Assembly: GCA_964372165.1 (NCBI GenBank)
Contig: CAYJPT010000001.1
Coordinates: 1,106 to 65,105, forward strand
Source of the DNA: an uncultured Desulfovibrionaceae bacterium
GTDB lineage: Bacteria; Desulfobacterota; Desulfovibrionia; Desulfovibrionales; Desulfovibrionaceae
Direction of reading: 5' to 3'
DNA length: 64,000 nt
Below the pieces are notes generated by a model that had not been told where the DNA came from, searched no databases, and saw only the letters and a program-made list of their open reading frames with translations. Position numbers and translations under genes: made by a program. Positions 397-16,828 of this stretch are shown one piece after another; the stretch's first letter is position 1; every line of letters starts with the position of its first letter.

Positions 397-972
397 TTAT
401 TCTGACCACTCCTCAGGTGCTGGCACACTTGGCAAAGGAAGGTTGGCAGACATTTGCTGAGTATTTACTATGAAATTAAGTCTAAAAGACCATATACTAC
501 CTTCACGCTTGCGCACAAAATGAGAGGTTTTATAACGCAATTCTTTTTTCACCACACTCATAGGACCAAAAAAATTTCGCATAGTGCTAATGTCAGAAGC
601 TTTCCAGCGAAAAGCTCCAACACTCATTAATTGCTCCATAACTCTTAAAAATTGTTGTCCACCTTCATTATTTTGTCCGGTGTCAGTGAAGGTTACCTCA
701 GCTCCCGTAACCACAAGTTTATTCACATATATTGTGAGTAATACACTATGCCCATAGTCAACTACATAGCCTTGCTCACTTTTACGCGCATTGGTAAGAC
801 TTACAAATTTTGTTTCATACTTGCCCCAGAATCTTTGAAAAGATTCCCATAAAAATTGCGGAGGCTGCTGAATAGACTCTTGATTTTGACAAGCCATTAA
901 ACAAATACATATCATGAATGAGGAGAAAAACAATAATCTTTTTTTCACACTATCATCCCTTTGCTGTAGCAT
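397..972 (-). CDS. Hypothetical lipoprotein, last gene of the export block
   Basis: ORF 397..1029 trimmed to the internal ATG at 972 (MLQQRDDSVKKRLLFFSSFMICICLMAC). It has a basic n-region, a hydrophobic core and an LMAC lipobox-like cysteine. No recognisable catalytic motif. Confidence 0.5.
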   Translation of the reverse strand: MLQQRDDSVKKRLLFFSSFMICICLMACQNQESIQQPPQFLWESFQRFWGKYETKFVSLTNARKSEQGYVVDYGHSVLLTIYVNKLVVTGAEVTFTDTGQNNEGGQQFLRVMEQLMSVGAFRWKASDISTMRNFFGPMSVVKKELRYKTSHFVRKREGSIWSFRLNFIVNTQQMSANLPLPSVPAPEEWSE

Positions 973-2368
973 TTTCCCAAGGCGGAGGTGGGCGCCATAC
1001 CCACAATAAAGCAAGCAGTGGAACAACACCTATAATTTCTGCTATCAAACGCCCGACTATAGGCAGTAATATCCACCACAAACTAAAAGCCAAGGCTGGC
1101 ACACAGATAACAATTACCCACTGCAAGATACTTAGTGGTTTAGCCTTATATTGAAAATATGATACCGTGCAAATGGCTACCCAAACCTTGGTTAAAGTTA
1201 TAGCCAGTGCTGCCCCTTCTAAAGGCATCTTTTGTGTTAAATAAGTACACAATAAAATATTTATCCCCAAACCACTGGCATAAAATACTAAAAGCAATTT
1301 GTGTTTACGCATGCTTATCATTGCATACGCTGCAAGATTGTGCAAAAAAGCAGTTGCAATGCAGGGTGCTAAAATCCGCTGTGCGGTAACCGCAACATCA
1401 TAATTTGCACCATAAATAAAGGTCAAAATACGATCACTTTCCACACATATAACATAAATCAAAGGCATACAAGCAGCCCACAAACTACGTGCAGTTTGCC
1501 CTGTTAATTTTTGAAATGCTAGTTTATCTGTATCCCATAATTTAGCCATAACCGGAAAAACAACTTTTGCCAAAAGCGCACTTGATACCAATACAGAAAG
1601 ACCGTCAACAACCTCCCAAGCAACGCTATACGCACCAACTGCGGCATCTCCACCATATTTTTTTAGAAAAAATACATTTAACTTATTATAAAGAATAGCG
1701 CATGCGGCAATGCATGTAAAAACAATCCCTTGCTTCCATTTATTTGCTATTTGCCTCAAGTCAACAAGGCGTATTCCTATAAGTGGATTACGCCCCAGTG
1801 CCTTTAGAGAAATAGAAACAAGAAGTAATGATTCAAGTGGTTTATATAGAGCAATATAGATGGGAGGTGCATCAAAAAGCACTAAGGCTATACCAACACC
1901 GATACCAATAAGACTTGCAGGAACACGAATACGCATCTCTACATCTTGGCGCCCTCGTGCTTGGCACAAAGCAAAAAACGAATCGCTAAGAGCATCAATA
2001 CCAAGCCCTGCAGCAATCGACATAACTATAATGCGTAATTCTAAACTATAGCCTTGCCAAACAGTAAAAAACCACGTGCCTACTAAAGCTAAGCAAAGCA
2101 GCACAATTTTTAGCCATGTAATGGCTCCCAGCAATTGAAGCGGACGGTTTTCACGCCTAGCAAATGTTGAGATTAAAAAGTCATTAAGCCCAACATCAGC
2201 AATAAGGCGTACAATATACCCAAATGATAGAGCAAGCATAATCTGGCCAAGGACATCAGAGCTATGACGCGCTAGAATAATAGTGAACAATGTCCACGTA
2301 ACATCACGAGTCCACTGCGCACCTAGCACATATCCAAGCCGCTGTGGAATGCTTCTTAACTTGGCCAT
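953..2368 (-). CDS. MOP-superfamily flippase (Wzx / polysaccharide-biosynthesis-protein type)
   Basis: 471 aa, polytopic and hydrophobic throughout. Overall resemblance to oligosaccharide/lipid flippase family proteins. Overlaps or abuts its neighbours on the same strand. Confidence 0.7.
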   Translation of the reverse strand: MAKLRSIPQRLGYVLGAQWTRDVTWTLFTIILARHSSDVLGQIMLALSFGYIVRLIADVGLNDFLISTFARRENRPLQLLGAITWLKIVLLCLALVGTWFFTVWQGYSLELRIIVMSIAAGLGIDALSDSFFALCQARGRQDVEMRIRVPASLIGIGVGIALVLFDAPPIYIALYKPLESLLLVSISLKALGRNPLIGIRLVDLRQIANKWKQGIVFTCIAACAILYNKLNVFFLKKYGGDAAVGAYSVAWEVVDGLSVLVSSALLAKVVFPVMAKLWDTDKLAFQKLTGQTARSLWAACMPLIYVICVESDRILTFIYGANYDVAVTAQRILAPCIATAFLHNLAAYAMISMRKHKLLLVFYASGLGINILLCTYLTQKMPLEGAALAITLTKVWVAICTVSYFQYKAKPLSILQWVIVICVPALAFSLWWILLPIVGRLIAEIIGVVPLLALLWVWRPPPPWENATAKG

Positions 2369-2383
2369 GTAACCTGTATCAAT

Positions 2384-3436
2384 TTAAGATGCGTTTGGTT
2401 GTGCGCTTGGCTGTACAATCGGCTGCGCGTTCGATTCTCCCTGAGGATTTTGATTATCATCACTTGGAGCTTGCGCAGGCTCAGCCTTCGCATCATCTTT
2501 ATTTTCTTGTTTATTAGCATTTTTTACATTACGAGACATTGCCACTAAAACCTTAAAACCAGGCCTTAATTCAAAATCTGGATTAGGAATAGTAAATTCT
2601 ATTGTAAAATATGATGGTGCACCAATTTCTATGTTATTACTAGTCCAAGAAATATTGCTAACAGTAGCATCAATAACCTTATCATTTAAAGAAGGAATAG
2701 TAGCTTGGCCTATGTCACCAACCTTTATATCTTCCATATCGCCTTCATATACAAGGACATTAATTAGCATTGGATTCAAAGTTCCGATGGTAATGGGCTT
2801 TGCACCCTCTGCTAATTCTTTATTGGGAAACAATCCTGACGCTAGAGAAAGCACTCTACCATCCATAGGGGCTTTAAGTACTAAACTTTTAGGAAGGTCC
2901 ATACCTTCTTTAATGGTTACTCCAAAGTATTCACTCAATTCTTCAAGTCTTTGCTTAAAGTTTTTTTCTCTTTTTGCTACCGCACGTTTAAGTAATTTAA
3001 TACGTTGCCTTATGGAGTCAACATCTCCAGCTAAACGATCGGAAAGTTGATCTGGTCCAAGCCCACTTGATGACAATTTACGCGCCGTATTCCTATTATT
3101 AGTAAGTTCTACTAATTGCCTTTCCGTGGACAAAATATTAGCTCGGTCTTCTTCAGTATTAGCTCCAGTGGTTACTTCTTGTTGCAAGTTTCGTCTGGCA
3201 TCATCTGTAAGTGTGTATTTCATCAAAACTTGATCTTTCATAACACTTTGGCCAGGCTTAACTAAAACTTCTTCAACCACGGCTTCAAAAGGTAATGCAG
3301 TAGCACGTGTTACTTGGCTAACAACTTTGCCACTAAGTGAGGTAGTTACTGTGGCAGCATCTGCACTTTGCAGGCTTGTAAAAAATGAACAAAAAACACA
3401 TATCAGTGCTATGTTTTTTATTTTGTTAATAATCAT
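2384..3436 (-). CDS. HlyD-family membrane fusion (periplasmic adaptor) protein
   Basis: N-terminal signal/anchor (IALICVFCSFFTSLQSADA), a lipoyl-like hairpin (VEEVLVKPGQSVMKDQVLMKY), a long coiled-coil middle and a beta-barrel-like C-terminal part. Low-complexity Q/N/P/A tail. Confidence 0.75.
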   Translation of the reverse strand: MIINKIKNIALICVFCSFFTSLQSADAATVTTSLSGKVVSQVTRATALPFEAVVEEVLVKPGQSVMKDQVLMKYTLTDDARRNLQQEVTTGANTEEDRANILSTERQLVELTNNRNTARKLSSSGLGPDQLSDRLAGDVDSIRQRIKLLKRAVAKREKNFKQRLEELSEYFGVTIKEGMDLPKSLVLKAPMDGRVLSLASGLFPNKELAEGAKPITIGTLNPMLINVLVYEGDMEDIKVGDIGQATIPSLNDKVIDATVSNISWTSNNIEIGAPSYFTIEFTIPNPDFELRPGFKVLVAMSRNVKNANKQENKDDAKAEPAQAPSDDNQNPQGESNAQPIVQPSAQPNAS

Positions 3437-3437
3437 G

Positions 3438-4916
3438 CTAAAACTCCTCTGATGCTGGCAAACCTAAGAAACGTTCACTTAGCAGGCCAGCAACATCCAT
3501 CCACTTAATTCTTGCCATATCATAATCTAGCTCTACCATAATTAAACTAATACGTGCAGCAATAAGGTCTGCTTGTGCACTAGCTAACTCAGGGTACACT
3601 ACAACGCCGTCATTAAAGCTAATTTCTTTTTCTTTTAACAGCATTTCTGAAACTTTTAAGTTATTTTGGGCTATTTTAAGGCTATTTTCAGCCAATTTTA
3701 CCATCTGTTGCCCCTCTATCCATTCATGCGAAAACTCTGTACGAGCCTGAGCTTGCTCTTGAAATGCCTGAGCTTTTTCCATGCGTGCGGTCTGTACACC
3801 GCGATAACGCCTACCCCAATCTATAAGAGGAAATTGCAAATTCAAGTGTACAAATGTATCTTCTTGTCCATCAACAGGCTGATACTGTCCAGCAGGTGGA
3901 TTATTATCAACACGGATAGCTATATCTGGAATGTACTCTGCCCACGCTAACATTATGCCAAGATCCATCAAAGCAATTTGTCCGCGCAGTAAAAGTGCGT
4001 CTTCACTGCGATTCCAGTGTTCTTCCCAATGTAATTGTTCTCCGTCAAAACCTTGAAGAATATTTTTTGCATCGGTAGTATCAACATTAAATTTATGCTC
4101 TAACTCCACACCAACTATACTCTTCAACTTAGTGCGCAGCATTAAATCTTCAATCTTATTACGCTCAAGTTCGAGTTGTCTTTCACGCTCTTGTTGTATT
4201 GCTATGTTAAGAGATGCACCTTGTTTGCCCTCCACAGCTTCTAATTGCTGCCAATATTCGATTAATTTTTTGGCTATAGGCAAAAGTTGCTCTTGTAATG
4301 CAATAGTTTTTCTTTTTGCCTCAAGCTGCTGATACATACCAGCAATATTTAAAATAGCTTCAGCAATCGCTTTGCGATGTGTGGACAAAGCAATATCAAT
4401 CATCATAGCTTTTGATTTGTGATTAAAATATGTTGAGACAGGATTTGGGAAACTCATATTAAAAGCTACCCGCATCTTTGTTTTAGCATAGTCTGCCGGC
4501 AAGTCTTCAAGTCCAGTATTTAGAGCTGTAATATTATTTGAAATGTCTAAAGATATAGTTGGCTCTGGTAAATATTGCCAAACTGCATCAACAAGCTTGA
4601 GCTTACTCATCTCAATAGATACGGCTGAGTTAGCTAGTAATGGAGATTGCTGTATTGCCAAATACACGCTATCATCAAAGGAAAATGCTTTGTCAGAATT
4701 ATATAGGTTTGGCATTGAAGCTTCTAGCTTTGCTTTATGCTCAACAGGCACTCCTGGAGCAGACTCAAGCCAGTGTCGTGCTGGCAATTCAGGCGCACTC
4801 ATACCAGCTTTTTGTGATGCGCAACCTCCAAGGAAAGCTATCATCATAAATAAACATATGATATTTTTTGAAAGATATAACCTCTGCCCCACAAACCAAC
4901 CACTAAATTTAAACAT
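3438..4916 (-). CDS. TolC-family outer membrane efflux protein
   Basis: 492 aa with a lipoprotein-like signal (FLGGCAS) and two long helical repeats typical of outer membrane factors. The stop is 1-2 nt from the adaptor gene start. Confidence 0.75.
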   Translation of the reverse strand: MFKFSGWFVGQRLYLSKNIICLFMMIAFLGGCASQKAGMSAPELPARHWLESAPGVPVEHKAKLEASMPNLYNSDKAFSFDDSVYLAIQQSPLLANSAVSIEMSKLKLVDAVWQYLPEPTISLDISNNITALNTGLEDLPADYAKTKMRVAFNMSFPNPVSTYFNHKSKAMMIDIALSTHRKAIAEAILNIAGMYQQLEAKRKTIALQEQLLPIAKKLIEYWQQLEAVEGKQGASLNIAIQQERERQLELERNKIEDLMLRTKLKSIVGVELEHKFNVDTTDAKNILQGFDGEQLHWEEHWNRSEDALLLRGQIALMDLGIMLAWAEYIPDIAIRVDNNPPAGQYQPVDGQEDTFVHLNLQFPLIDWGRRYRGVQTARMEKAQAFQEQAQARTEFSHEWIEGQQMVKLAENSLKIAQNNLKVSEMLLKEKEISFNDGVVVYPELASAQADLIAARISLIMVELDYDMARIKWMDVAGLLSERFLGLPASEEF

Positions 4917-4925
4917 TTTTTTACC

Positions 4926-7900
4926 TCATGACACAACAGAAAGCATACGTAAACCTTGCAATACGAGCAAAACCTTACCATTTACCTCAACTATTTGCGC
5001 ATTAATTAATTTTTCCAAGCCTGAACCTTGTAATTGCCAATCTATATGAGCAATGTCATAATTTTGCATAGCAGACACGTGGCTAAAATGTAAGATATCA
5101 ACTATTTGGTAATTTTCGTATGTTGGCAAAGCCAACTTTTGTATCAACCCAATGCTTGCGATTTGCAAGTTATAGTACAAATCATGCTGTTCTGCAATGT
5201 TTTTTATTGAAAATATATGCTCATGAATATTTTTTTTATCTAATAATTCCTGCCTATTATCTCCCCATAAAGGAATTATACTTTCCTCTTCATTACTTAG
5301 GTAAATTTTTCCTTTAGCGTAGCATTGTTTCTCTTGTAAACGCCGTCCATTTTCAGAAATTGCATAAATCTCAAGCGATGATTGGCATGGCAAAACCAAA
5401 CCTTGGCCTGCATTTGTCCATTGCTCAGCTTCTATTATCGCTTCACCCTCGCGCGTGATACCATCTGGACATTTAAATGCACTTTCAAAATGTAAATCAC
5501 TAGCTCCACTACATTGCAACCAAGTAAAACCCATACGTGCTGCACTATATAATGTATCTAACATAAAAAGAGGTGACACTTCGGGGGCAGATGTTTTTTG
5601 ACTAGCCAAAAAACCATCTGCATAAACAGAAAAATTACGACGTGCAATAAAATTTGTCTGGCTATCTAACTTCATTTGCTTAGGGTATAAATGTGGAAAG
5701 TTATGCATATCTTCAGCAAGACCAGCTTTTGCCACTGCTGTGGGGCTTGCATCTGGCATAAGGGTTGGCACTTGCGGAAATGATTTATGCCAAATAACAT
5801 TGTTCTCAGTACCACATAAAAGCTCACGAGCAAAAAGCATTGGCAATACATCATAATCAAGTAAACCTACGCCCAGCGCAGTAAATACACTTTGTAAACC
5901 CTCATTAGATAGCATACCCACATTACCATTTACAGGTGCTAACCATAGGCAACGCCAAAACAAATCATGCTTTGTACAAAACTGCTCCAATAAGGCAGCC
6001 ATAGCTCGATTAGCTGCAGCATAATTAGCTTGTCCTATATTACCACACCAGGCAGCAAGCGATGATATACCCACAGCATAGCGCAAACCATACTTAACCG
6101 ATTCTTGCAAAAGGTTTTCTAAGCCATCATATTTAACGGCCATTACCTGCGATATTTGCCTTGTGCTCAATTCACTCAACGGTACATCTTCATTTATACC
6201 AGCTCCATGTATTAAGCCATGTATTTCACCCCAAGTTTCAAAAATGCTTGCCAGCGTTGTTTGTACTTGTTTTTTATCACTCACATCACAGGCGTAATAA
6301 ACACATTTTGCCCCAAAACCTGCCAGTTTTTCTATAACTTGTTGAGAAGGCGCAGCACTACGCCCTAATAGCAACAAGGTGCATTCAAGCATGGCTAAGC
6401 CCTCTAAAGCCTTTGGAGTAATGCCACGCCCTCCACCTGAAACTATAATTACTTGCCCTTTGCTAATGGGTAAGCCAAATCTACCAGCAGCCCAAGGTTT
6501 TTGCTTTAAGCGAAGCGATCCCATGTAGCTTGAGTTTAAACATGAGTACAAAGGAAATTCACTATGCGTGCATAATATTTTTTGCATAAAGCCTTGCATT
6601 GCGCCATTACTTAAACCTTGCTTAGTGTGTATGGCTCTAAAATGACGCTGTGGATATTCCTGCGCTGCCGTCAAGAGTAATGCATTTAAGCTTGCAAAAA
6701 GATTTGAACCAAGTAGCGATGTTGTCAATTCTTCATGTACTATACACATTTGCCCTTTTTCACTACGCAAAAATGCCTGTACAAGACTCATGTATTCTAT
6801 AATAGGTGAAGAATCTTTATAGGATAAAATTTCATCTAGATATGGCAAAGCTATGACAATCAGACCTGGTTTCAAGTCTTGCTCAAGCGTTGCTTGTGCG
6901 TGAAGTATATCCTCAACCCTTAATACTTGCTCACTGCCAAAGGTTTGCGTCAAAAATTCATACCATTGTTGAGCATAGTCATTTTTCCCAACTATCACAG
7001 CCGGTAAAAATTCTTTTTTATCACTAAGCAATTGTGCATTCCACTCCTCACCTGGCATTACAAAAGGGCATTTTTCAATAACACTACGTACAATGGGATG
7101 AGTGGTAATAGGCTTTTCTATGGTAGGTTGTTCATCACTTGTTGAATCTATATTTAATGAACGCGCATTAGCCACAACCTTTGCTAAATCTGCAATAGTG
7201 GCAACATCTATAAAATCCTCAAAGTTGACCTTAACATTAAATGTCTTTTCAATTTCATTAATAACTACAGGAAAACGACTTGAACGCATAGCAAGGTCAT
7301 AACGCAAATCCATGTGTGCAGACAATTGGTGCGACTCAAAACCTGTTACTCGTACCAAAAGCGGTATAATGTCTTCTACATAATTGGCAGTGTTTTCAGT
7401 TTTTGTTTCAAGACATTTTGCGTCGCTTTGATCTTTTGCAATTTTTTTTCGCTTTGGTACAAAATTATCCGGAACAACATAAGTACTTGGGCCTTTAATA
7501 TGCCCAAGAGAATAAAGCTCAGCCACAGCCCTGCGCATGGCTTCAACTTCTTTACCTTTACGTCCAACGGAAATACGATGCGCTGTAGGTTGTATTTCTG
7601 AAATAAGCCGACTTAAAGTTGCAGTTGGACCAAGCTCCACAAAATGGCGAACAGAATAATCATTATATACTCTATTAACACAATCCACCCAGCGTACCGG
7701 GCTTTCATCAAGGTCAGCTATATATTCGCATATACTTTCTTTATCGTTTGGATATAAATCTGCAGTAACATTGCTTAACACTGGTGTATGTCCAGCTTGA
7801 ATAGTAAATTCCATCAAACTATCAATGGATATTTTGCGAATAGTACGCAAACCAGGATGATGGAAAGCCATACTAATATTAAGCAGGCCTACCATAATTT

Positions 7901-8762
7901 TTTGCTCTTTTAATTTAGCGCAGGCTTTTTCTAAATCGCTTCGTGTTCCACTTAAAATGTACTGCGTAGGGCTATTATAACTTGAAACATAAAAATTTGG
8001 AAAATCCTCTAAAACCTGCTTGATTACATCATAAGGAGCATGAACAGCCATCATACCACTATCGTGATTACCCTCTTGCTCCATATCATCTATAATTTTT
8101 GAATGCTTATTGATGATACCCCACGCATCTTCAGGCGAATATACTCCCGCTAGGCATAAGGCAATAAGCTCTCCTAAACTATGCCCAACAACAATATCCG
8201 CTTTATATCCTAGTGTCTCAAGGTAGTATGCTTGGGCATATGAAACGAAAAAAATATACGGAGCTTGCCAGCGTGTGCGCATAAGCTTTTTTTTATCGGT
8301 TTCATCAAGTAAGGCTAAAATATCCCAATCTGAAACAGCAGCAATGCGCTCCATGGCTGCTCTAACAGCAGGAATATTATCATAAAGTTCACGCCCCATA
8401 TGAGCAAAAACGCTGCCTTGCCCTCCGGTAATAGTAGCAATTCTAGGCTTATCTTGCTTTTTTTCCAGCCATATACCCTGCTTGCGCAAATCCTTTAAAG
8501 TAGCATTATCTGGATTTTTTCCAATGTTAGTTATATAATTACGCCATGATGGTGTTATAGAGCCAATTCGCCATAATTCACCTGCATGACTAAGGCTAAT
8601 TAAGCGAACACCATTTTCTACGTGTTGACTTTCTATGAAGTTTTCTTGTTCCTGTCCTGCACCCATAGATACGGCATTAGTACTTTCCAATTCAATGCTC
8701 CCACATAAAAGCCAATAATATGGCTTTTCAATATAAACTATATTAATTAACACATAAAACAA
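4926..8762 (-). CDS. KS-less PKS-like multidomain protein: acyltransferase - ACP-like - ketoreductase, plus unassigned N- and C-terminal regions
   Basis: AT motifs GGQGSV, GHSLGE (nt 8172-8186) and MAFHHP. ACP-like four-helix region around nt 7271-7315. SDR/KR motifs GGGRGIT (about nt 6421-6450) and YAAAN (about nt 6004-6032). No CHH ketosynthase motifs anywhere. The track start is a non-ATG codon; the true start may be the ATG at 8666. Confidence 0.85.
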   Translation of the reverse strand: MFYVLINIVYIEKPYYWLLCGSIELESTNAVSMGAGQEQENFIESQHVENGVRLISLSHAGELWRIGSITPSWRNYITNIGKNPDNATLKDLRKQGIWLEKKQDKPRIATITGGQGSVFAHMGRELYDNIPAVRAAMERIAAVSDWDILALLDETDKKKLMRTRWQAPYIFFVSYAQAYYLETLGYKADIVVGHSLGELIALCLAGVYSPEDAWGIINKHSKIIDDMEQEGNHDSGMMAVHAPYDVIKQVLEDFPNFYVSSYNSPTQYILSGTRSDLEKACAKLKEQKIMVGLLNISMAFHHPGLRTIRKISIDSLMEFTIQAGHTPVLSNVTADLYPNDKESICEYIADLDESPVRWVDCVNRVYNDYSVRHFVELGPTATLSRLISEIQPTAHRISVGRKGKEVEAMRRAVAELYSLGHIKGPSTYVVPDNFVPKRKKIAKDQSDAKCLETKTENTANYVEDIIPLLVRVTGFESHQLSAHMDLRYDLAMRSSRFPVVINEIEKTFNVKVNFEDFIDVATIADLAKVVANARSLNIDSTSDEQPTIEKPITTHPIVRSVIEKCPFVMPGEEWNAQLLSDKKEFLPAVIVGKNDYAQQWYEFLTQTFGSEQVLRVEDILHAQATLEQDLKPGLIVIALPYLDEILSYKDSSPIIEYMSLVQAFLRSEKGQMCIVHEELTTSLLGSNLFASLNALLLTAAQEYPQRHFRAIHTKQGLSNGAMQGFMQKILCTHSEFPLYSCLNSSYMGSLRLKQKPWAAGRFGLPISKGQVIIVSGGGRGITPKALEGLAMLECTLLLLGRSAAPSQQVIEKLAGFGAKCVYYACDVSDKKQVQTTLASIFETWGEIHGLIHGAGINEDVPLSELSTRQISQVMAVKYDGLENLLQESVKYGLRYAVGISSLAAWCGNIGQANYAAANRAMAALLEQFCTKHDLFWRCLWLAPVNGNVGMLSNEGLQSVFTALGVGLLDYDVLPMLFARELLCGTENNVIWHKSFPQVPTLMPDASPTAVAKAGLAEDMHNFPHLYPKQMKLDSQTNFIARRNFSVYADGFLASQKTSAPEVSPLFMLDTLYSAARMGFTWLQCSGASDLHFESAFKCPDGITREGEAIIEAEQWTNAGQGLVLPCQSSLEIYAISENGRRLQEKQCYAKGKIYLSNEEESIIPLWGDNRQELLDKKNIHEHIFSIKNIAEQHDLYYNLQIASIGLIQKLALPTYENYQIVDILHFSHVSAMQNYDIAHIDWQLQGSGLEKLINAQIVEVNGKVLLVLQGLRMLSVVS

Positions 8763-8766
8763 GATT

Positions 8767-8950
8767 CAGCACAATTAATTGGCACAGACTGATGACAAAC
8801 CCCCTTTCAGGCGTTTGTGCCGCCTAAGGCAGACAAGCTGCCTTGGCAGTAAGGCACGAAAATCATTCGTTTAACGGCGCAAATGAATTGCGCCTACTCT
8901 TGATTTATCGGCTCGTGCTGACTTTGTCAGCACTCTGAGCACAATTAATT
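8767..8950. repeat. Structured ~156-nt module flanked by an exact 14-bp direct repeat (AGCACAATTAATTG) and splitting a palindrome
   Basis: Direct repeats at 8767-8780 and 8937-8950. The second lies in the perfect 16-bp palindrome GCACAATTAATTGTGC (8938-8953). The interior carries at least four hairpins, for example AAGGCAG-ACAAG-CTGCCTT at 8825-8843. Its core is homologous to 16709-16794. Confidence 0.6.
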
Positions 8951-9346
8951 GTGCAGTAGTCTTAAAATATTCAATAAAAGACCACAAAGACAGAAAAAAT
9001 ATTTTTCACAACATAACAATTCAAACTATACTCAAAAAAATACATATCATATCAAATTCTTATGTGGAATAAAATTACAACTCCAAATTAATTCGCAAAA
9101 TGAGCACAGTATAGCATTATTACTTCCTACATTAGAAGTAACATGCTCATCAAAGCTGCAAGGTCTTTGATTTATAAATTATAGGACATTTTATCACACT
9201 TGTCTATCAAGGCATAGGTTTGCCCAAAACCAAGTTAATATATATTCTTGCCAAAAAGAAAAGTTTGTTGTAAGCATCTTCATTCACGTGCTACATGATA
9301 ACATTGTCAATACAAGCACCATATAAAACTTTGGGAGATAGATGGC

Positions 9347-10645
9347 ATGAATAAAGAGCAAGAATTGAACACCATGTCCGATGAGCAAATAGAAAAAAGT
9401 GATTCTTCGTTGGAGTTCAATTATGTGCACAAAAAACTTTCCGTTGGTCGAGCTGTGGCCATGGGAAAAAAAATGGGTATTCGCAACCCACTATTTTTGT
9501 GCCACGATAAAGCTGCCAAAGCTTATACCACCATTGAGGGCAAAGAATACCTCAATTTTTCTACCTATGATTACCTAGACATTAATACACATCCTGAAAT
9601 AACCGCCGCTGTTACTAAAGCTGCAGAAAAATACGGAACTTCTGCCGGTGCAAGCCGCCTTGTTGGTGGGGAGCGCCCACCACATTTAGAGCTTGAACGC
9701 GCCATTGCAGATTTTTATGAAGTTGATGATAGCATTGTTTACGTAAGTGGCCATGCAACCAATGTTTCAACATTGGGTTTTCTCTTCACCTCGCGCGATT
9801 TAATATTGCATGATAATCTTGCACATAACTCCTTAATGCAAGGAGCTAAGCTTTCATCTGCAACGCGCATGTCTTATACGCATGATAACACCGACGCTTT
9901 AGAAGCTATATTAAAACAACGCCGTAATGACTTTCGCCATGTAATAATTGTAACTGAAGGCCTTTTTAGCATGGACGGCAATATACCTGATTTACCACGC
10001 ATCGTTGAACTAAAAAAACAATATAATTGTATGCTACTTGTAGACGAAGCACACTCATTAGGTATACTTGGTGCAACAGGGCGTGGTGCACGTGAGCATT
10101 TTAATATTGACCCCAATGATGTTGACATGTGGATGAGCACCCTTAGTAAATCACTGTGTGGTTGCGGGGGTTTTATTGCCGGCAATAAAAAACTTATTGA
10201 AAACTTAAAGTATGGCTCTCCAGGCTTTGTTTTTAGCGTAGGAATGTCACCTATACTTGCTGTTGCATGCAAAACAGCTCTTGACATAATACAACGTGAA
10301 CCAGAGCGTGTACACAAATTACAACATATTAGTAAGTATTTTCTTGACTATGCCAAAAGCCTCAACCTTGATACTGGTGTTGCACAAGGATATGCCAATG
10401 TTCCAATAATCGTTGGTAATTCTATGGTGACAGGCGTTGTATCCAACGCACTATTAAACCGTGGTATTTACGTTATGCCTATTACTTTCCCGGCAGTGCA
10501 GGAAGGTACAGCAAGACTTCGTTTCTTCTTATCAGCTGCACATTCTGAAGCTGATGTACGAAGAGCACTTGATATTACAGCAGAAGAATTACCAAAGGCT
10601 GCAAAAACCATTGAAGAATGGATTGCAAACAACCCACAAGATTAA
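9347..10645 (+). CDS. PLP-dependent alpha-oxoamine synthase family enzyme (BioF / serine palmitoyltransferase / CqsA class)
   Basis: 432 aa with a class-II aminotransferase fold. VDEAHS and the PLP-lysine motif STLSKSL (about nt 10136-10160). SD-like GGGAGA precedes the ATG. Confidence 0.85.
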   Translation: MNKEQELNTMSDEQIEKSDSSLEFNYVHKKLSVGRAVAMGKKMGIRNPLFLCHDKAAKAYTTIEGKEYLNFSTYDYLDINTHPEITAAVTKAAEKYGTSAGASRLVGGERPPHLELERAIADFYEVDDSIVYVSGHATNVSTLGFLFTSRDLILHDNLAHNSLMQGAKLSSATRMSYTHDNTDALEAILKQRRNDFRHVIIVTEGLFSMDGNIPDLPRIVELKKQYNCMLLVDEAHSLGILGATGRGAREHFNIDPNDVDMWMSTLSKSLCGCGGFIAGNKKLIENLKYGSPGFVFSVGMSPILAVACKTALDIIQREPERVHKLQHISKYFLDYAKSLNLDTGVAQGYANVPIIVGNSMVTGVVSNALLNRGIYVMPITFPAVQEGTARLRFFLSAAHSEADVRRALDITAEELPKAAKTIEEWIANNPQD

Positions 10646-10919: not shown

Positions 10920-12839
10920 ATGTGTGGCATAGCAGGTTTTTATCAACTTGATGGGCAAAATTTACCGCATGAAGCCTCTACATGGCTAAAAAATATGACA
11001 GACGCCATAAACTATCGTGGCCCAGACGGTGAGGGACAATGGATTGATGGTGCTGTTGCTCTAGGGCATAGGCGCCTTTCTATAATTGACCTAAAAACTG
11101 GTGCGCAGCCTATGTCAGATGCCTCTGACCAAGTATGGGTTACCTTCAATGGTGAAATATATAATTTTCCAGCACTACGTGAAGAATTAAAAGCACGCGG
11201 TTGCACCTTTCGCACAAACTCAGATACAGAAGTTATACTATATGCTTGGCAAGAATGGGGTAAGGATTGTGTGCAGCATTTTGAAGGCATGTTTGCCTTT
11301 GTCTTATATGATAAAAGACAAAAAATCCTTTTTTGCGCTAGGGATCGTTTTGGGAAAAAACCTTTCTATTACACGATTCAACAGGGTCGCTTTATTTTTG
11401 CCTCAGAACTTACAGCTATAAAATGCTTTCCAAACTTGAGCTTAAGTGTAAAGCCACAATCTCTTATGCGTTATTTAGCATATGAGTATGCGCCAACACC
11501 TGAGTGCATTTATACCGAAGTGCAAAAACTGCCTCCTTCACACAGCCTCATGCTATGTGAAGGAAAAACAACACTGTCGCGCTATTGGGAAATACCAACG
11601 CCGCTTGAAAATGTCACAGTTTCTGAAGATGACCTTGCAAGTGAGCTTTGCCACCTGCTAGACAAAGCTGTGGAGCGGCGCATGATAAGTGATGTGCCAC
11701 TTGGTGTTTTTCTATCCGGTGGTATTGATTCTTCAATAATCACAGCCCTAATGGCTGGCAAAGCTGATAAAATAAAAACATTTTCCATAGGGTTTAAAGA
11801 AGCAAGCTATGATGAGTCACAATATGCGCGCATTATTGCAAACCACTATACAACCGACCATTGCGAGCACATACTATCCGCCGATTATTGCGCAGAAATT
11901 TTGCCAGATGTTATAAGTCGTCTTGATGAGCCTATGGCTGACGCATCTGTTGCGCCAACATATTTATTATCAGAGCTTACCCGAAAGCATGTTACTGTGG
12001 CCCTTGGCGGTGACGGATCAGATGAATTATTTGCAGGCTATGAACATTTTATTGGCTTAAAAGTTGCTGAACATTACAACAAATGGCCTTCATTGTTGCG
12101 TAAAGGAATTGAAGGTATTTCATCAAGTTTACCTGCCAGTTCAAACTATATTAACTTAAACAATGCATTATCTACTTTTCTGGGTGCAGCTTATGCTCCA
12201 CCATGGCAAAGAGTACAAAGCTTGCTCACAGCCTTTACCCCTGAAATGCAACAAGATATTTGGAATAAAAATTTTATCAAGGATAACCATGATTTTTTAG
12301 CTTTAGATTCACTTTTTGCACCTACTAAGGAACATTTTTCCCACTGGCCAACCTCCAGCGCAGTGGGCAATGTAGAAAGAGCTGCTTATGTTTATGCACG
12401 ACAATTTCTTGTCGATGATATTTTAACTAAAGTGGATCGCTGCTCAATGTTGAAATCGCTTGAAGTGCGAGCACCATTTTTAGATACACAAGTGGCAGAA
12501 TTTGCAGCTAGACTACCACTACAGTATAAACTTAAAGGATTTAAAAGAAAATACTTACTTAAAAAAGCTTGTTCTGGGCTTTTACCCAAGGAAATTCTTA
12601 ATCGCAATAAGCGCGGATTTCAGATTCCAGTGGCCGCATGGTTACGAGGTTCCTTACGCCCCATGGTAGAAGAGTTATTAGGGGAACGCTTTTTGCAAGA
12701 ACAAGGTGTATTTAGTGTACCACACATTAAATCACTGGTAGATACGCACATGAGTGGCAAAAAAGATTTACGCAAGCCCCTTTGGACTTTGCTTGTGCTA
12801 CAAATGTGGTGGAGGGCAAACAAGCCAAAAATTTTATAA
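10920..12839 (+). CDS. Asparagine synthase (glutamine-hydrolysing) family amidotransferase, probable pathway-specific paralog
   Basis: N-terminal MCGIAG (Ntn Cys2), the SGGIDSS PP-loop, 639 aa. Confidence 0.9.
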   Translation: MCGIAGFYQLDGQNLPHEASTWLKNMTDAINYRGPDGEGQWIDGAVALGHRRLSIIDLKTGAQPMSDASDQVWVTFNGEIYNFPALREELKARGCTFRTNSDTEVILYAWQEWGKDCVQHFEGMFAFVLYDKRQKILFCARDRFGKKPFYYTIQQGRFIFASELTAIKCFPNLSLSVKPQSLMRYLAYEYAPTPECIYTEVQKLPPSHSLMLCEGKTTLSRYWEIPTPLENVTVSEDDLASELCHLLDKAVERRMISDVPLGVFLSGGIDSSIITALMAGKADKIKTFSIGFKEASYDESQYARIIANHYTTDHCEHILSADYCAEILPDVISRLDEPMADASVAPTYLLSELTRKHVTVALGGDGSDELFAGYEHFIGLKVAEHYNKWPSLLRKGIEGISSSLPASSNYINLNNALSTFLGAAYAPPWQRVQSLLTAFTPEMQQDIWNKNFIKDNHDFLALDSLFAPTKEHFSHWPTSSAVGNVERAAYVYARQFLVDDILTKVDRCSMLKSLEVRAPFLDTQVAEFAARLPLQYKLKGFKRKYLLKKACSGLLPKEILNRNKRGFQIPVAAWLRGSLRPMVEELLGERFLQEQGVFSVPHIKSLVDTHMSGKKDLRKPLWTLLVLQMWWRANKPKIL

Positions 12840-12885: not shown

Positions 12886-13515
12886 ATGTTTAAACGTCTA
12901 ATTTTTACTGCACTATTATGCCTTATTATGGTTGTGCCTGCTGCGGCAGAAACTTCCGGATTTTATGCTGGAGGTAAATTTATTTACTCCTATCAAACTT
13001 CTTGGGGCGGTGGATTATTTAGTGAATCCTACTCTCAAAGTGTCACTGGTGGTGGTTTTTTTGCAGGCTATGATTTTTATCAACAAAGTGACCTACCCAT
13101 ACGTGCTGAAATAGAATATGCTTTTCGTGGAAACCTTTATAAGGAAGATAATGCATCAGGCTACGCATCAGAAACTTTTTATAATATGCAAACATTATTA
13201 GTTAATTTTTATTATGACTTTTACAATGAAAGTTCCTTTACCCCCTATGTAGGTGCAGGTTTAGGTGTTGGATTTATGAATGGTAATTATAAATTTGATG
13301 TATCCGGAAGCAGTTTTGAAGGTAGTATGACCGACACAGTGCTTGCCTGGCATGTAGGTGGCGGTGTTGGCTATGCCATAACAGATAGAATTACTGCTGA
13401 CCTTGGTTATCGCTATCAAACCTTTGGCAGTAGCTACAAAGATTCCAACAATCAAGAGTTTGAAACTTCCACCAGCGGCCATGAAATAAGCCTTGGTGTA
13501 CGCTTTAACTTCTAA
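12886..13515 (+). CDS. Small outer-membrane beta-barrel protein
   Basis: Signal peptide ending AAAE, alternating aromatic/Gly beta-strand pattern, and the C-terminal GVRFNF with a terminal Phe typical of OMPs. Confidence 0.75.
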   Translation: MFKRLIFTALLCLIMVVPAAAETSGFYAGGKFIYSYQTSWGGGLFSESYSQSVTGGGFFAGYDFYQQSDLPIRAEIEYAFRGNLYKEDNASGYASETFYNMQTLLVNFYYDFYNESSFTPYVGAGLGVGFMNGNYKFDVSGSSFEGSMTDTVLAWHVGGGVGYAITDRITADLGYRYQTFGSSYKDSNNQEFETSTSGHEISLGVRFNF

Positions 13516-13520
13516 AATCA

Positions 13521-13542
13521 TCCGCACAATAAATTGTGCAGA
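13521..13542. repeat. Degenerate copy of the GCACAAT-ATTGTGC palindrome
   Basis: TCCGCACAAT-AA-ATTGTGCAGAA, immediately after the OMP stop codon. Confidence 0.45.
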
Positions 13543-16625: not shown

Positions 16626-16828
16626 AGCTCTGCACAATTGTTTTCAGATATGAATTAATGGTTAAAACTTAAAATCTACTTAAACACCACAGCCAAGCGT
16701 ACAGAGCGAAAGGCACGAAAATCAATCACTTAACGGTGAAGCAAAGCTCCACCTATTCTTGATTTTCGGTTGCGCTGATTAACGTCAACGCTCTATGAAC
16801 CTCTACATAATGAGTTATGCAGAGGTTT
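16626..16828. repeat. Composite element: CTCTGCACAAT-type inverted ends enclosing the structured module also seen at 8849-8936
   Basis: Left end AGCTCTGCACAATTG (16626-16640); right end TTATGCAGAGGTT (about 16815-16828). The first ~60 nt align with 53110-53170. The core at 16709-16794 aligns with 8849-8936 with compensatory changes in two hairpins. Confidence 0.6.

Follow-up and report, generated by a model that had tools for sequence, protein, structure and literature searches.

Domain anatomy of the PKS-like protein

We analyzed a 64,000-nucleotide stretch of DNA from an uncultured Desulfovibrionaceae bacterium (contig CAYJPT010000001.1; hereafter, the window), focusing on a polyketide synthase (PKS)-like gene on the minus strand (4926..8762). 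The open reading frame (ORF) is uninterrupted over 1278 codons from a TTG at 8762, and lies between a divergent gene for an alpha-oxoamine synthase (AOS) and the genes of a putative exporter. Sequence comparison identified the encoded protein as an orthologue, lacking the ketosynthase (KS), of a single-module type I PKS that is specific to the Desulfovibrionaceae and has, when complete, the order KS-acyltransferase (AT)-acyl carrier protein (ACP)-ketoreductase (KR)-dehydratase (DH)-like. The window protein has the architecture linker-AT-ACP-KR (structural and catalytic)-DH-like, i.e., the order of PfaA and the enediyne PKSE minus the KS. The gene is genuine and well conserved, and its odd look has an evolutionary explanation.

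The protein collection contains an identical 1278-aa entry (P0001). The protein search returned 1031 significant matches, and the family counts given below cover the best 120 of these 1031. The closest relatives measure 1250-1253 aa, and the TTG at 8762 is probably not the true start; an in-frame TTG at 8690 (codon 25), preceded by GGGAG 7 nt upstream, or an ATG at 8666 (codon 33) appears likelier. Residue numbers used here refer to the 1278-aa form.

A first-pass annotation of this sequence had called the AT, carrier and KR domains, and Pfam recovered all three (Acyl_transf_1, PP-binding and KR), with the quoted motifs (GGQGSV, GHSLGE, MAFHHP, DLAMRSSRF, GGGRGIT and YAAAN) each at the place given earlier. 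That the protein has no KS proved right as well. Pfam gave no ketoacyl-synt match in the ORF (neither PF00109 nor PF02801), and tblastn with the KS regions of five relatives detected neither a KS nor a remnant of one in the ORF, the upstream spacer or the whole 64-kb window. The sole matches of the KS plus linker queries in the window (nt 8556-8705) fall in a conserved linker. This linker (residues ~45-108; 8439..8630, minus strand) aligns, with invariant positions, to the KS-AT interval of longer relatives (P0004-P0030) and by this alignment represents the pre-AT linker that remained after KS loss. The Pfam and tblastn searches found no degenerate KS, either in the N-terminus and other regions previously left unassigned or in the ~600-680-bp upstream spacer. 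The window protein is accordingly without the KS, bearing a Cys-His-His triad, of a chain-extending type I PKS module.

The FabD-type AT spans residues 113-389 (7596..8426, minus strand; PF00698, E=1.8e-32), with GGQGSV at residues 113-118, GHSLGE at 193-198 (nt 8169-8186) and MAFHHP at 298-303. Both the catalytic Ser of GHSxG and the His are in place (GHS195LGE and AFH301), and GHSLGE and xAFHH are near-universal among the relatives. The top PDB sequence matches are FabD malonyl-CoA:ACP transacylases (3im8 and 2cuy, E~1e-30), and by these and by its xAFH motif the AT looks malonyl-type. It shares GQGS, GHSLGE and xAFH with FabD; it differs in being fused into a 1250-aa protein and in having His in place of Arg117, and it scored 146.9 bits against the FabD model TIGR00128, well below the cut-off of 260.9 bits. 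The Arg117 position is taken by His220 (nt 8103-8105) in the window AT, while it is Arg in 111/119 relatives (93%). His was found at this position in the window protein and in P0034, P0037, P0042, P0052, P0056 and P0059, all of them KS-less and distributed over three clades. Two of the loci with this change have enough upstream sequence, L110 (the contig of L016) and L109, and neither has an adjacent AOS gene. The change is seen in 7/96 KS-less and 0/23 KS-bearing proteins, counts at which the difference is unlikely to be statistically significant; the pattern is suggestive of a tie to KS loss or to a relaxed need for a carboxylated substrate.

The carrier domain (residues 465-529; 7176..7370, minus strand; PF00550, E=1e-5) has DLAMRSSRF at residues 489-497, in which Ser494 (nt 7281-7283) is the candidate for phosphopantetheine attachment. 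In a gapless global alignment, the score of which was low, this first Ser of RSS falls on Ser36 of E. coli AcpP; a BLASTP comparison of the two domains yielded no match. The motif had been flagged as atypical, and it does deviate from the canonical one, but it is not peculiar to the window: DLxxRSSRF is present in 104/120 relatives, KS-bearing ones included. As judged from this distribution, it is a family signature and not a sign of decay. A decayed carrier site was rejected, as RSSRF is the family norm and is shared by proteins whose KS, AT and KR have all their catalytic residues. Because KS-bearing relatives with a Cys/His/His KS have the identical motif, their RSS carrier must work, and the simplest reading is that RSS is a working phosphopantetheine site with an unusual Arg replacing Asp. 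The carrier is also the best-conserved domain, being 69-73% identical at L004, L005 and L008, which are the three closest full-length loci, compared with 54-57% for the AT in the same loci and 30-49% for the KR in L004 and L005.

The stretch that begins where the ACP ends and runs slightly beyond the KR (residues 537-972) was modelled by AlphaFold2 with a pLDDT of 83.8, and Foldseek aligned the model over ~430 columns to complete two-subdomain PKS KRs (5d2e, 2fr0 and 3mjv; E 2e-21 to 1e-19, TM 0.67-0.72), the macrolactin, bacillaene, DEBS KR1 and amphotericin KRs being among the matches. Because the model matches complete two-subdomain KRs, residues ~558-759 (6486..7091, minus strand) are predicted to be the KR structural (pseudo-KR) subdomain, which gives an assignment to the stretch (550-760) that had been left without one. 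The catalytic subdomain follows at residues ~770-942 (5937..6455, minus strand; PF08659, E=1.5e-29 for residues 772-927). It keeps SGGGRGIT (GGGRGIT at 776-782), LLGRS, K877 (VKYDG), S900/901 and Y914AAAN (YAAAN at 914-918), and has INED859 at the position of LDD in B-type KRs. Sequence and model together reveal a complete two-subdomain PKS KR, i.e., a structural subdomain and a Rossmann subdomain with the NADPH motif and the Lys/Ser/Tyr/Asn residues, and its identity to the KR of the KS-bearing P0004 is 52%.

The C-terminus (residues ~1020-1278; 4929..5705, minus strand) is a predicted PKS DH-like double hotdog, as had been guessed. The AlphaFold2 model of the last 316 residues (pLDDT 82.1) matched solely PKS DH double hotdogs in Foldseek, namely CurF, CurK, CurJ, GphF and a MAS-like PKS (E 6e-12 to 1e-9). 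The CurF, CurK and CurJ matches had E values of 6e-12 to 1e-10 and query-length-normalised TM scores of 0.46-0.56. In the PDB, the CurJ DH was matched by a profile of this region at E=1.3e-3, and PF14765 (PS-DH) was reached by 4/19 family members. A C-terminal thioesterase or release domain was rejected, given that the Foldseek and profile matches are PKS dehydratases only; one relative did match a thioesterase in phmmer, an artefact of low-complexity Pro/Ala sequence.

The model thus has the double-hotdog fold of PS-DH and the sequence lacks its catalytic residues, the His of HxxxGxxxxP and the Asp of the second hotdog. HxxxGxxxxP is absent from the window protein and 18 aligned relatives, and a relaxed pattern applied to the 120 relatives gave scattered, unrelated matches and no conserved His motif. 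At the column of the CurJ Asp some relatives have Glu and the window protein has no acidic residue, according to a manual reading of the alignment that is less certain. Canonical dehydratase activity is unlikely, because no member has a conserved HxxxGxxxxP. The domain is nevertheless retained in 117/120 relatives with motifs of its own (FSxY, G(V/I)TRE and NGR(R/H)); candidate roles are acyl binding, docking or release. The ~400 aa that had carried no assignment are therefore ordinary PKS parts: the linker, the KR structural subdomain and the DH fold.

Family distribution and domain loss

The best 120 relatives fall into four groups: two full-length KS-less proteins with 41-46% identity to the window protein (P0002 and P0003); ~25 proteins of 1650-1880 aa with 35-40% identity and an N-terminal KS whose Cys/His/His residues are intact; AT-ACP-DH-like proteins of 800 aa; and a large set of 1030-1490 aa from gut Desulfovibrio, titled "acyltransferase domain-containing proteins". 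To profile the genomic loci we scanned one genome per species, a set to which the window genome does not belong. Of the 72 strong loci, nearly all have Desulfovibrio or Desulfovibrionaceae in their titles, and none is named for another family; D. piger ATCC 29098, D. desulfuricans and D. falkowii are among them; beyond these 72 loci there were generic AT matches only, at ~30% identity. The nearest loci belong to uncultured low-GC Desulfovibrionaceae metagenome-assembled genomes, and the window itself has 39% GC. Based on these searches, the family [KS]-AT-ACP-[KR]-DH-like is restricted to the Desulfovibrionaceae. The window protein has all of the family's features: DLxxRSSRFP, xAFHH, G(V/I)TRE, NGR(R/H), and genes for an outer-membrane factor, a membrane-fusion protein and a MOP-type flippase immediately downstream.

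In a neighbour-joining (NJ) tree of the AT-ACP core, the KS-less proteins appear in three places: in a low-GC clade that includes the window protein and has the KS-bearing P0004 at its base, in a group beside the KS-bearing P0018, and in the large gut Desulfovibrio clade. This distribution indicates that the KS was lost secondarily and repeatedly, and the sequences indicate that the KR decays afterwards. The KS-less state had been read as the design of a standalone protein; it is derived instead, as the relatives with 35-40% identity are KS-AT-ACP-KR-DH-like proteins with the same divergent AOS and AsnB genes.

The fate of the KR can be followed among the KS-less members examined. The window protein is the only one with both the glycine-rich and the catalytic Tyr motifs; one or both of these are missing from P0002, P0003, P0029, P0033 and P0034. 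The gut Desulfovibrio proteins have, between the ACP and the DH-like domain, ~210-260 residues that correspond to the KR catalytic subdomain (hhalign 99.6%, E=2e-24). Here LALCVLDxxLLP stands in place of VVSGGGRGITP and no Tyr motif is left, a sequence that indicates a fossil KR. Such orthologues, AT-ACP-(fossil KR)-DH-like, occur in cultured human-gut Desulfovibrio at L019 (D. piger ATCC 29098), L026 (D. desulfuricans SFAD67) and other loci. The proteins can be arranged as a domain-loss series: the full module, a KS-less form with a live-looking KR (the window), a KS-less form with a fossil KR, and the 800-aa AT-ACP-DH-like form. By its sequence the window protein is a rare intermediate in which the KS is gone, the KR motifs are intact and His occupies the Arg117 position; its KR looks to be at an early stage of the series, or else put to new use. 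The series is useful for probing which PKS domains are structurally or catalytically indispensable.

The possibility that the protein is a decaying, functionless PKS remnant, which the first-pass annotation had raised against itself, draws on the lost KS, the DH-like domain without its catalytic motif, the replaced Arg117 and the KR decay in sister lineages. It is very improbable, and the least likely of the alternatives that we considered, given the uninterrupted ORF of ~1250 codons, the conserved operon position, and AT and ACP catalytic residues that are invariant over ~100 KS-less relatives with 30-55% overall identity.

The gene cassette and the AOS/PKS spacer

Divergent from the PKS-like gene is that for a pyridoxal phosphate (PLP)-dependent AOS of the BioF/Kbl/Spt family (9347..10645, plus strand; PF00155, E=5e-46), with DEAHS and TLSKS motifs. 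Its PDB matches include Thermus BioF/Kbl, Sphingobacterium serine palmitoyltransferase (SPT) and SphA. It scored below the NCBIfam cut-offs for BioF, Kbl, SPT, 5-aminolevulinate (ALA) synthase and CqsA, the values for the SPT models being 292 vs 640, 237 vs 500 and 187 vs 670 bits; the sequence places it in the AOS class outside SPT membership, with a substrate specificity that no equivalog model sets. It is followed on the same strand by genes for a glutamine-dependent AsnB-family amidotransferase (10920..12839; Asn_synthase, E=2e-101; above the cut-off of TIGR01536 and below that of TIGR03108) and for a small outer-membrane beta-barrel protein (12886..13515; PF13505, E=4e-20) that is conserved in the low-GC clade and L086. 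In D. desulfuricans and D. piger, one or two GT4 glycosyltransferase genes and a 339-aa ORF lie between AOS and AsnB.

On the minus strand, 10 nt downstream of the PKS-like ORF, a TolC-like outer-membrane factor is encoded (3438..4916; PF02321, E=8e-28), followed by an HlyD-type membrane-fusion protein (2384..3436; PF16576 and PF13437) with a weak DevB-family match. Next is a polytopic MOP/Polysacc_synt-type flippase homologue (953..2368), which itself has no Pfam or NCBIfam match and whose 77-82% identical orthologues carry PF01943/PF13440. The last cassette gene is a ~190-aa ORF (397..1029, minus strand) whose translation has a lipoprotein-like signal (...CLMAC...) and for which no Pfam or NCBIfam match was found; orthologues usually occur 3' of the flippase gene in the low-GC clade and in KS-bearing loci. 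The inner-membrane partner of the exporter is thus a MOP/Polysacc_synt-type protein, both here (953-4916, minus strand) and at ~48 orthologous loci. To our knowledge, the combination of TolC-like, HlyD-type and MOP/Polysacc_synt proteins is unusual compared with ABC, RND or MFS pumps.

The gene order of the window is identical to that of L004/L005 and ~50 other loci. A divergent AOS gene is present upstream in 49/57 related loci (86%), usually followed by AsnB, and the AOS-PKS pairs are always head-to-head within a few hundred bases, in KS-bearing and KS-less loci alike. At the 48 loci with enough downstream sequence, the exporter genes are found as TolC-like factor in 48, membrane-fusion protein in 48 and flippase in 47. 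The link to the AOS that had been proposed thus has synteny support, but the tightest partner is the downstream exporter (47-48/48). The KS-bearing P0004 has no nearby AOS, which had suggested that the AOS takes over condensation from the KS. This was refuted, because KS-bearing relatives also have the AOS: P0005, P0018, P0030 and L017 show the same divergent AOS/AsnB/exporter arrangement.

The spacer between the AOS and PKS-like genes harbors a structured element of ~150-190 nt (8765-8955, minus-strand orientation), with 47% GC vs ~29% in its flanks and a minimum free energy of -87 kcal/mol (z=-8.05 vs shuffles). A partial copy lies in the window at ~16710-16778 and another copy at L025:22074-22219 in a Desulfovibrio genome; the core CCGTTAARYGANTGATTTTCGTGCCTT was also detected in 20 metagenome contigs (L089-L108), several of them labelled human gut and one with two tandem copies. 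Among three copies, 13/44 predicted pairs covary, giving hairpins with compensatory changes. The flanks differ between copies, yet the left and right flanks are mutual inverted repeats in each, as if the element had been inserted in a hairpin or palindrome. Rfam gave no match in the window or spacer. The element could be a small RNA, or a miniature inverted-repeat transposable element or repetitive extragenic palindrome (MITE/REP)-like element that targets hairpins. Two exact copies of a 16-bp perfect palindrome, GCACAATTAATTGTGC (8768-8783 and 8938-8955), bracket it, and a 17-nt near-copy lies at 13524-13540, just past the outer-membrane barrel gene. The palindrome, which lies in the promoter region between the divergent AOS and PKS-like genes, is a possible operator site; the insertion may have duplicated or split it. 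Upstream is a sigma-70-like match, TAGACA-17-TATAAT (9206-9178, minus strand), although promoter-like sites are no commoner here than in shuffles.

The rest of the window (13674-64000) has ordinary chromosomal content and an even GC of 36-43%. It includes genes for LepA, an HhH-GPD glycosylase, a CobA/HemD fusion, a HemN-like radical SAM protein and leucyl aminopeptidase; flagellar FlgE, FlgI, FlgJ-like and FlgK, a flagellin-like protein and a TRAP transporter; and GDP-mannose pathway enzymes, a YkuD L,D-transpeptidase with a Cds6_C domain, adenylosuccinate lyase, MltA and UvrD. Because its surroundings are ordinary, the cassette is placed in the core chromosome, with no obvious island.

Known systems and the possible role of the cassette

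PfaA of polyunsaturated fatty acid (PUFA) synthases and the enediyne PKSE are iterative type I PKSs with the order KS-AT-ACP-KR-DH. The window protein shares with them the uncommon arrangement AT-ACP-KR-DH, in which the carrier precedes the KR, and its full relatives are exactly KS-AT-ACP-KR-DH-like. The PfaA model TIGR02813 is the second-best NCBIfam model of the window protein, matching the AT and KR regions; the score of 166.7 bits is far below the cut-off of 1010 bits and leaves the protein outside that model. In contrast to PfaA, it has no KS, one carrier with RSS instead of tandem DSL-type ACPs, and a DH-like domain without HxxxGxxxxP, and its neighbours are AOS, AsnB and the exporter, with no PfaB/C/D, phosphopantetheinyl transferase or thioesterase partner.

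By analogy, the window system works most like PKS/AOS hybrids and like sphingolipid synthesis by Spt plus a dedicated ACP. AOS enzymes off-load carriers in the pathways of fumonisin (Fum8), sphingofungin (SphA), prodiginines (RedL/PigH) and saxitoxin (SxtA). As in those systems, a PLP-dependent AOS is encoded here beside a carrier-containing megasynthase, and C-C release with an amino acid is what we propose. Unlike in those systems, the AOS is a separate, divergently encoded protein, the synthase has no KS, an envelope exporter is present, and the genes form a chromosomal cassette in ~60 species-representative Desulfovibrionaceae genomes and not a sporadic cluster.

Sphingolipid synthesis in Caulobacter and Sphingomonas starts with Spt and a dedicated ACP, and involves an acyl-ACP synthetase, the ketoreductase CerR and glycosyltransferases. 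The common features are an Spt/BioF/Kbl-family AOS, a dedicated carrier, a reductase, glycosyltransferases in some loci and a likely outer-membrane destination. The differences are that the carrier here would be loaded by a fused FabD-type AT and not by an adenylating enzyme, that no bCerS homologue was seen, that the AOS is below every SPT cut-off, and that the tripartite exporter is MOP-based. We found no report of a sphingolipid in Desulfovibrio in the literature searched. A further parallel is the heterocyst glycolipid system, which comprises an HglE-type PKS, a glycosyltransferase and the DevBCA-TolC exporter. There, too, PKS-type lipid genes go together with a TolC-like factor and a membrane-fusion protein; the inner-membrane part of the window system is MOP/Polysacc_synt-type and not ABC, AOS and AsnB are present, and both the taxon and the biology are different.

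Our best reading, to which we give a probability of about one half, is that the protein serves as a scaffold for acyl loading and carriage, feeding the AOS and the envelope exporter; the cassette probably makes and exports an amino-lipid. From the anatomy, conservation pattern and synteny described above we infer the following mechanism. The AT would load an acyl unit, malonyl by motif, or fatty acyl, onto the phosphopantetheine of Ser494; the Arg to His change at 220 would fit a relaxed need for a carboxylated substrate. An amino-acid carbanion on the AOS would then attack the acyl-S-ACP thioester, releasing an alpha-amino ketone, and such acyl-thioester plus amino acid logic is followed by SPT, Fum8/SphA and RedL. 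The cis KR may reduce the alpha-amino ketone. AsnB, together with the glycosyltransferases in other species, would tailor the product, and the MOP flippase, membrane-fusion protein and outer-membrane factor would carry it to the outer membrane or outside. In the KS-bearing relatives, extension of the chain by one malonyl unit and its reduction would come first. Extension would be optional, because KS and KR were repeatedly lost while AT, ACP, DH-like, AOS and exporter were kept. Of the loading and reducing scaffold for the AOS that the first-pass annotation had proposed, the loading part and, by synteny, the AOS link are retained; the reducing role is doubtful, with the KR decayed in sister proteins and its Tyr and/or glycine motif lost in the other KS-less members examined.

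Several points weigh against this scaffold reading. It requires the AT to load the chain itself, for which the precedent would be the malonyl/palmitoyl transferase of fungal fatty acid synthase, an Arg-containing FabD-fold AT able to load both groups, and the AT of the family looks malonyl-specific (xAFH, Arg117 in 111/119, FabD matches in the PDB) and ill-suited to direct fatty-acyl loading. The usual substrates of a PKS KR are beta-ketoacyl groups bound to an ACP; with no KS, none can form here, and the intact KR may be a recent leftover. The DH-like domain is assigned no role. The picture of repeated loss is based on the NJ tree, which is not a robust phylogeny. Finally, the adjacent AOS is missing in 8/57 loci (L001, L012, L016, L023, L027, L048, L049 and L109), and loci of this kind span the KS-bearing L001 and the KS-less L109 and L110. 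The AOS link is not obligatory, because of these 8/57 loci.

The malonyl-type AT motifs and nearest PDB matches, and the intact KR of the window protein, would be accommodated if a housekeeping or unlinked KS in trans (FabF/FabB/FabH-type) elongated on the malonyl-loaded carrier, the cis KR reduced, and the AOS or another enzyme off-loaded the product. Specialised ACPs that are served by type II enzymes exist, e.g., AcpXL and NodF, and give this alternative a precedent. It is the most credible of the competing explanations and still improbable: no KS gene lies within 10 kb of any KS-less locus or in the 64-kb window, KR function is lost in most KS-less orthologues, which would be unexpected for chain builders, and in the window AT the Arg that binds the malonyl carboxylate is replaced by His.

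The same malonyl-type motifs, with Arg117 in 93% of the family, also fit malonyl-S-ACP as the AOS substrate itself. The product would be a 4-amino-3-oxo acid that is KR-reduced, AsnB-amidated and used to decorate a glycan on which the glycosyltransferases and the Polysacc_synt-type flippase act. Succinyl-CoA feeds ALA synthase and pimeloyl-ACP feeds BioF in a comparable way, the AsnB is of the exopolysaccharide-locus kind (TIGR03108 is the best model), and GT4 genes and a Polysacc_synt flippase occur within the cassette. We regard this as rather unlikely, since KS-bearing orthologues with the same AOS would supply a quite different substrate to it, the Arg is lost in the window protein, and beta-keto acids decarboxylate readily, a fate to be expected of the product. 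The membrane-fusion protein and TolC-like factor, moreover, suggest export of an amphiphile.

The missing AOS genes could also mean that AOS and AsnB are mere neighbours and that the unit consists of the PKS-like protein and the exporter; the DH-like domain or some other enzyme would then release or transfer the acyl group. Exporter genes accompany 47-48/48 loci, AOS is missing upstream in 8/57, and the DH-like domain, with its own conserved motifs, persists in 117/120 relatives. This, too, seems unlikely, slightly more so than malonyl as AOS substrate, because the 86% co-location of AOS holds over deep divergence, in KS-bearing and KS-less loci and always head-to-head, and no alternative release enzyme (thioesterase, reductase or condensation domain) was seen in the cassettes.

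The gene can be explained with known parts, and the interest lies in the product of the cassette. A full-text literature search, the coverage of which was incomplete, found no paper on this cassette. Extending the acyl-loading scaffold reading, we tentatively suggest, as a possibility short of the scaffold role itself, that Desulfovibrionaceae, including the gut species D. piger and D. desulfuricans, make an undescribed envelope amino-(glyco)lipid, a sphingoid-like long-chain base, from AT-RSS carrier to AOS to MOP exporter, the extension module being optional. If true, an AT-loaded ACP would be a third feed for an SPT-like enzyme, beside acyl-CoA and synthetase-loaded ACP. Gut sulfate reducers are often linked to inflammation, and the cassette would, if this is true, represent a conserved envelope-lipid pathway in these bacteria.

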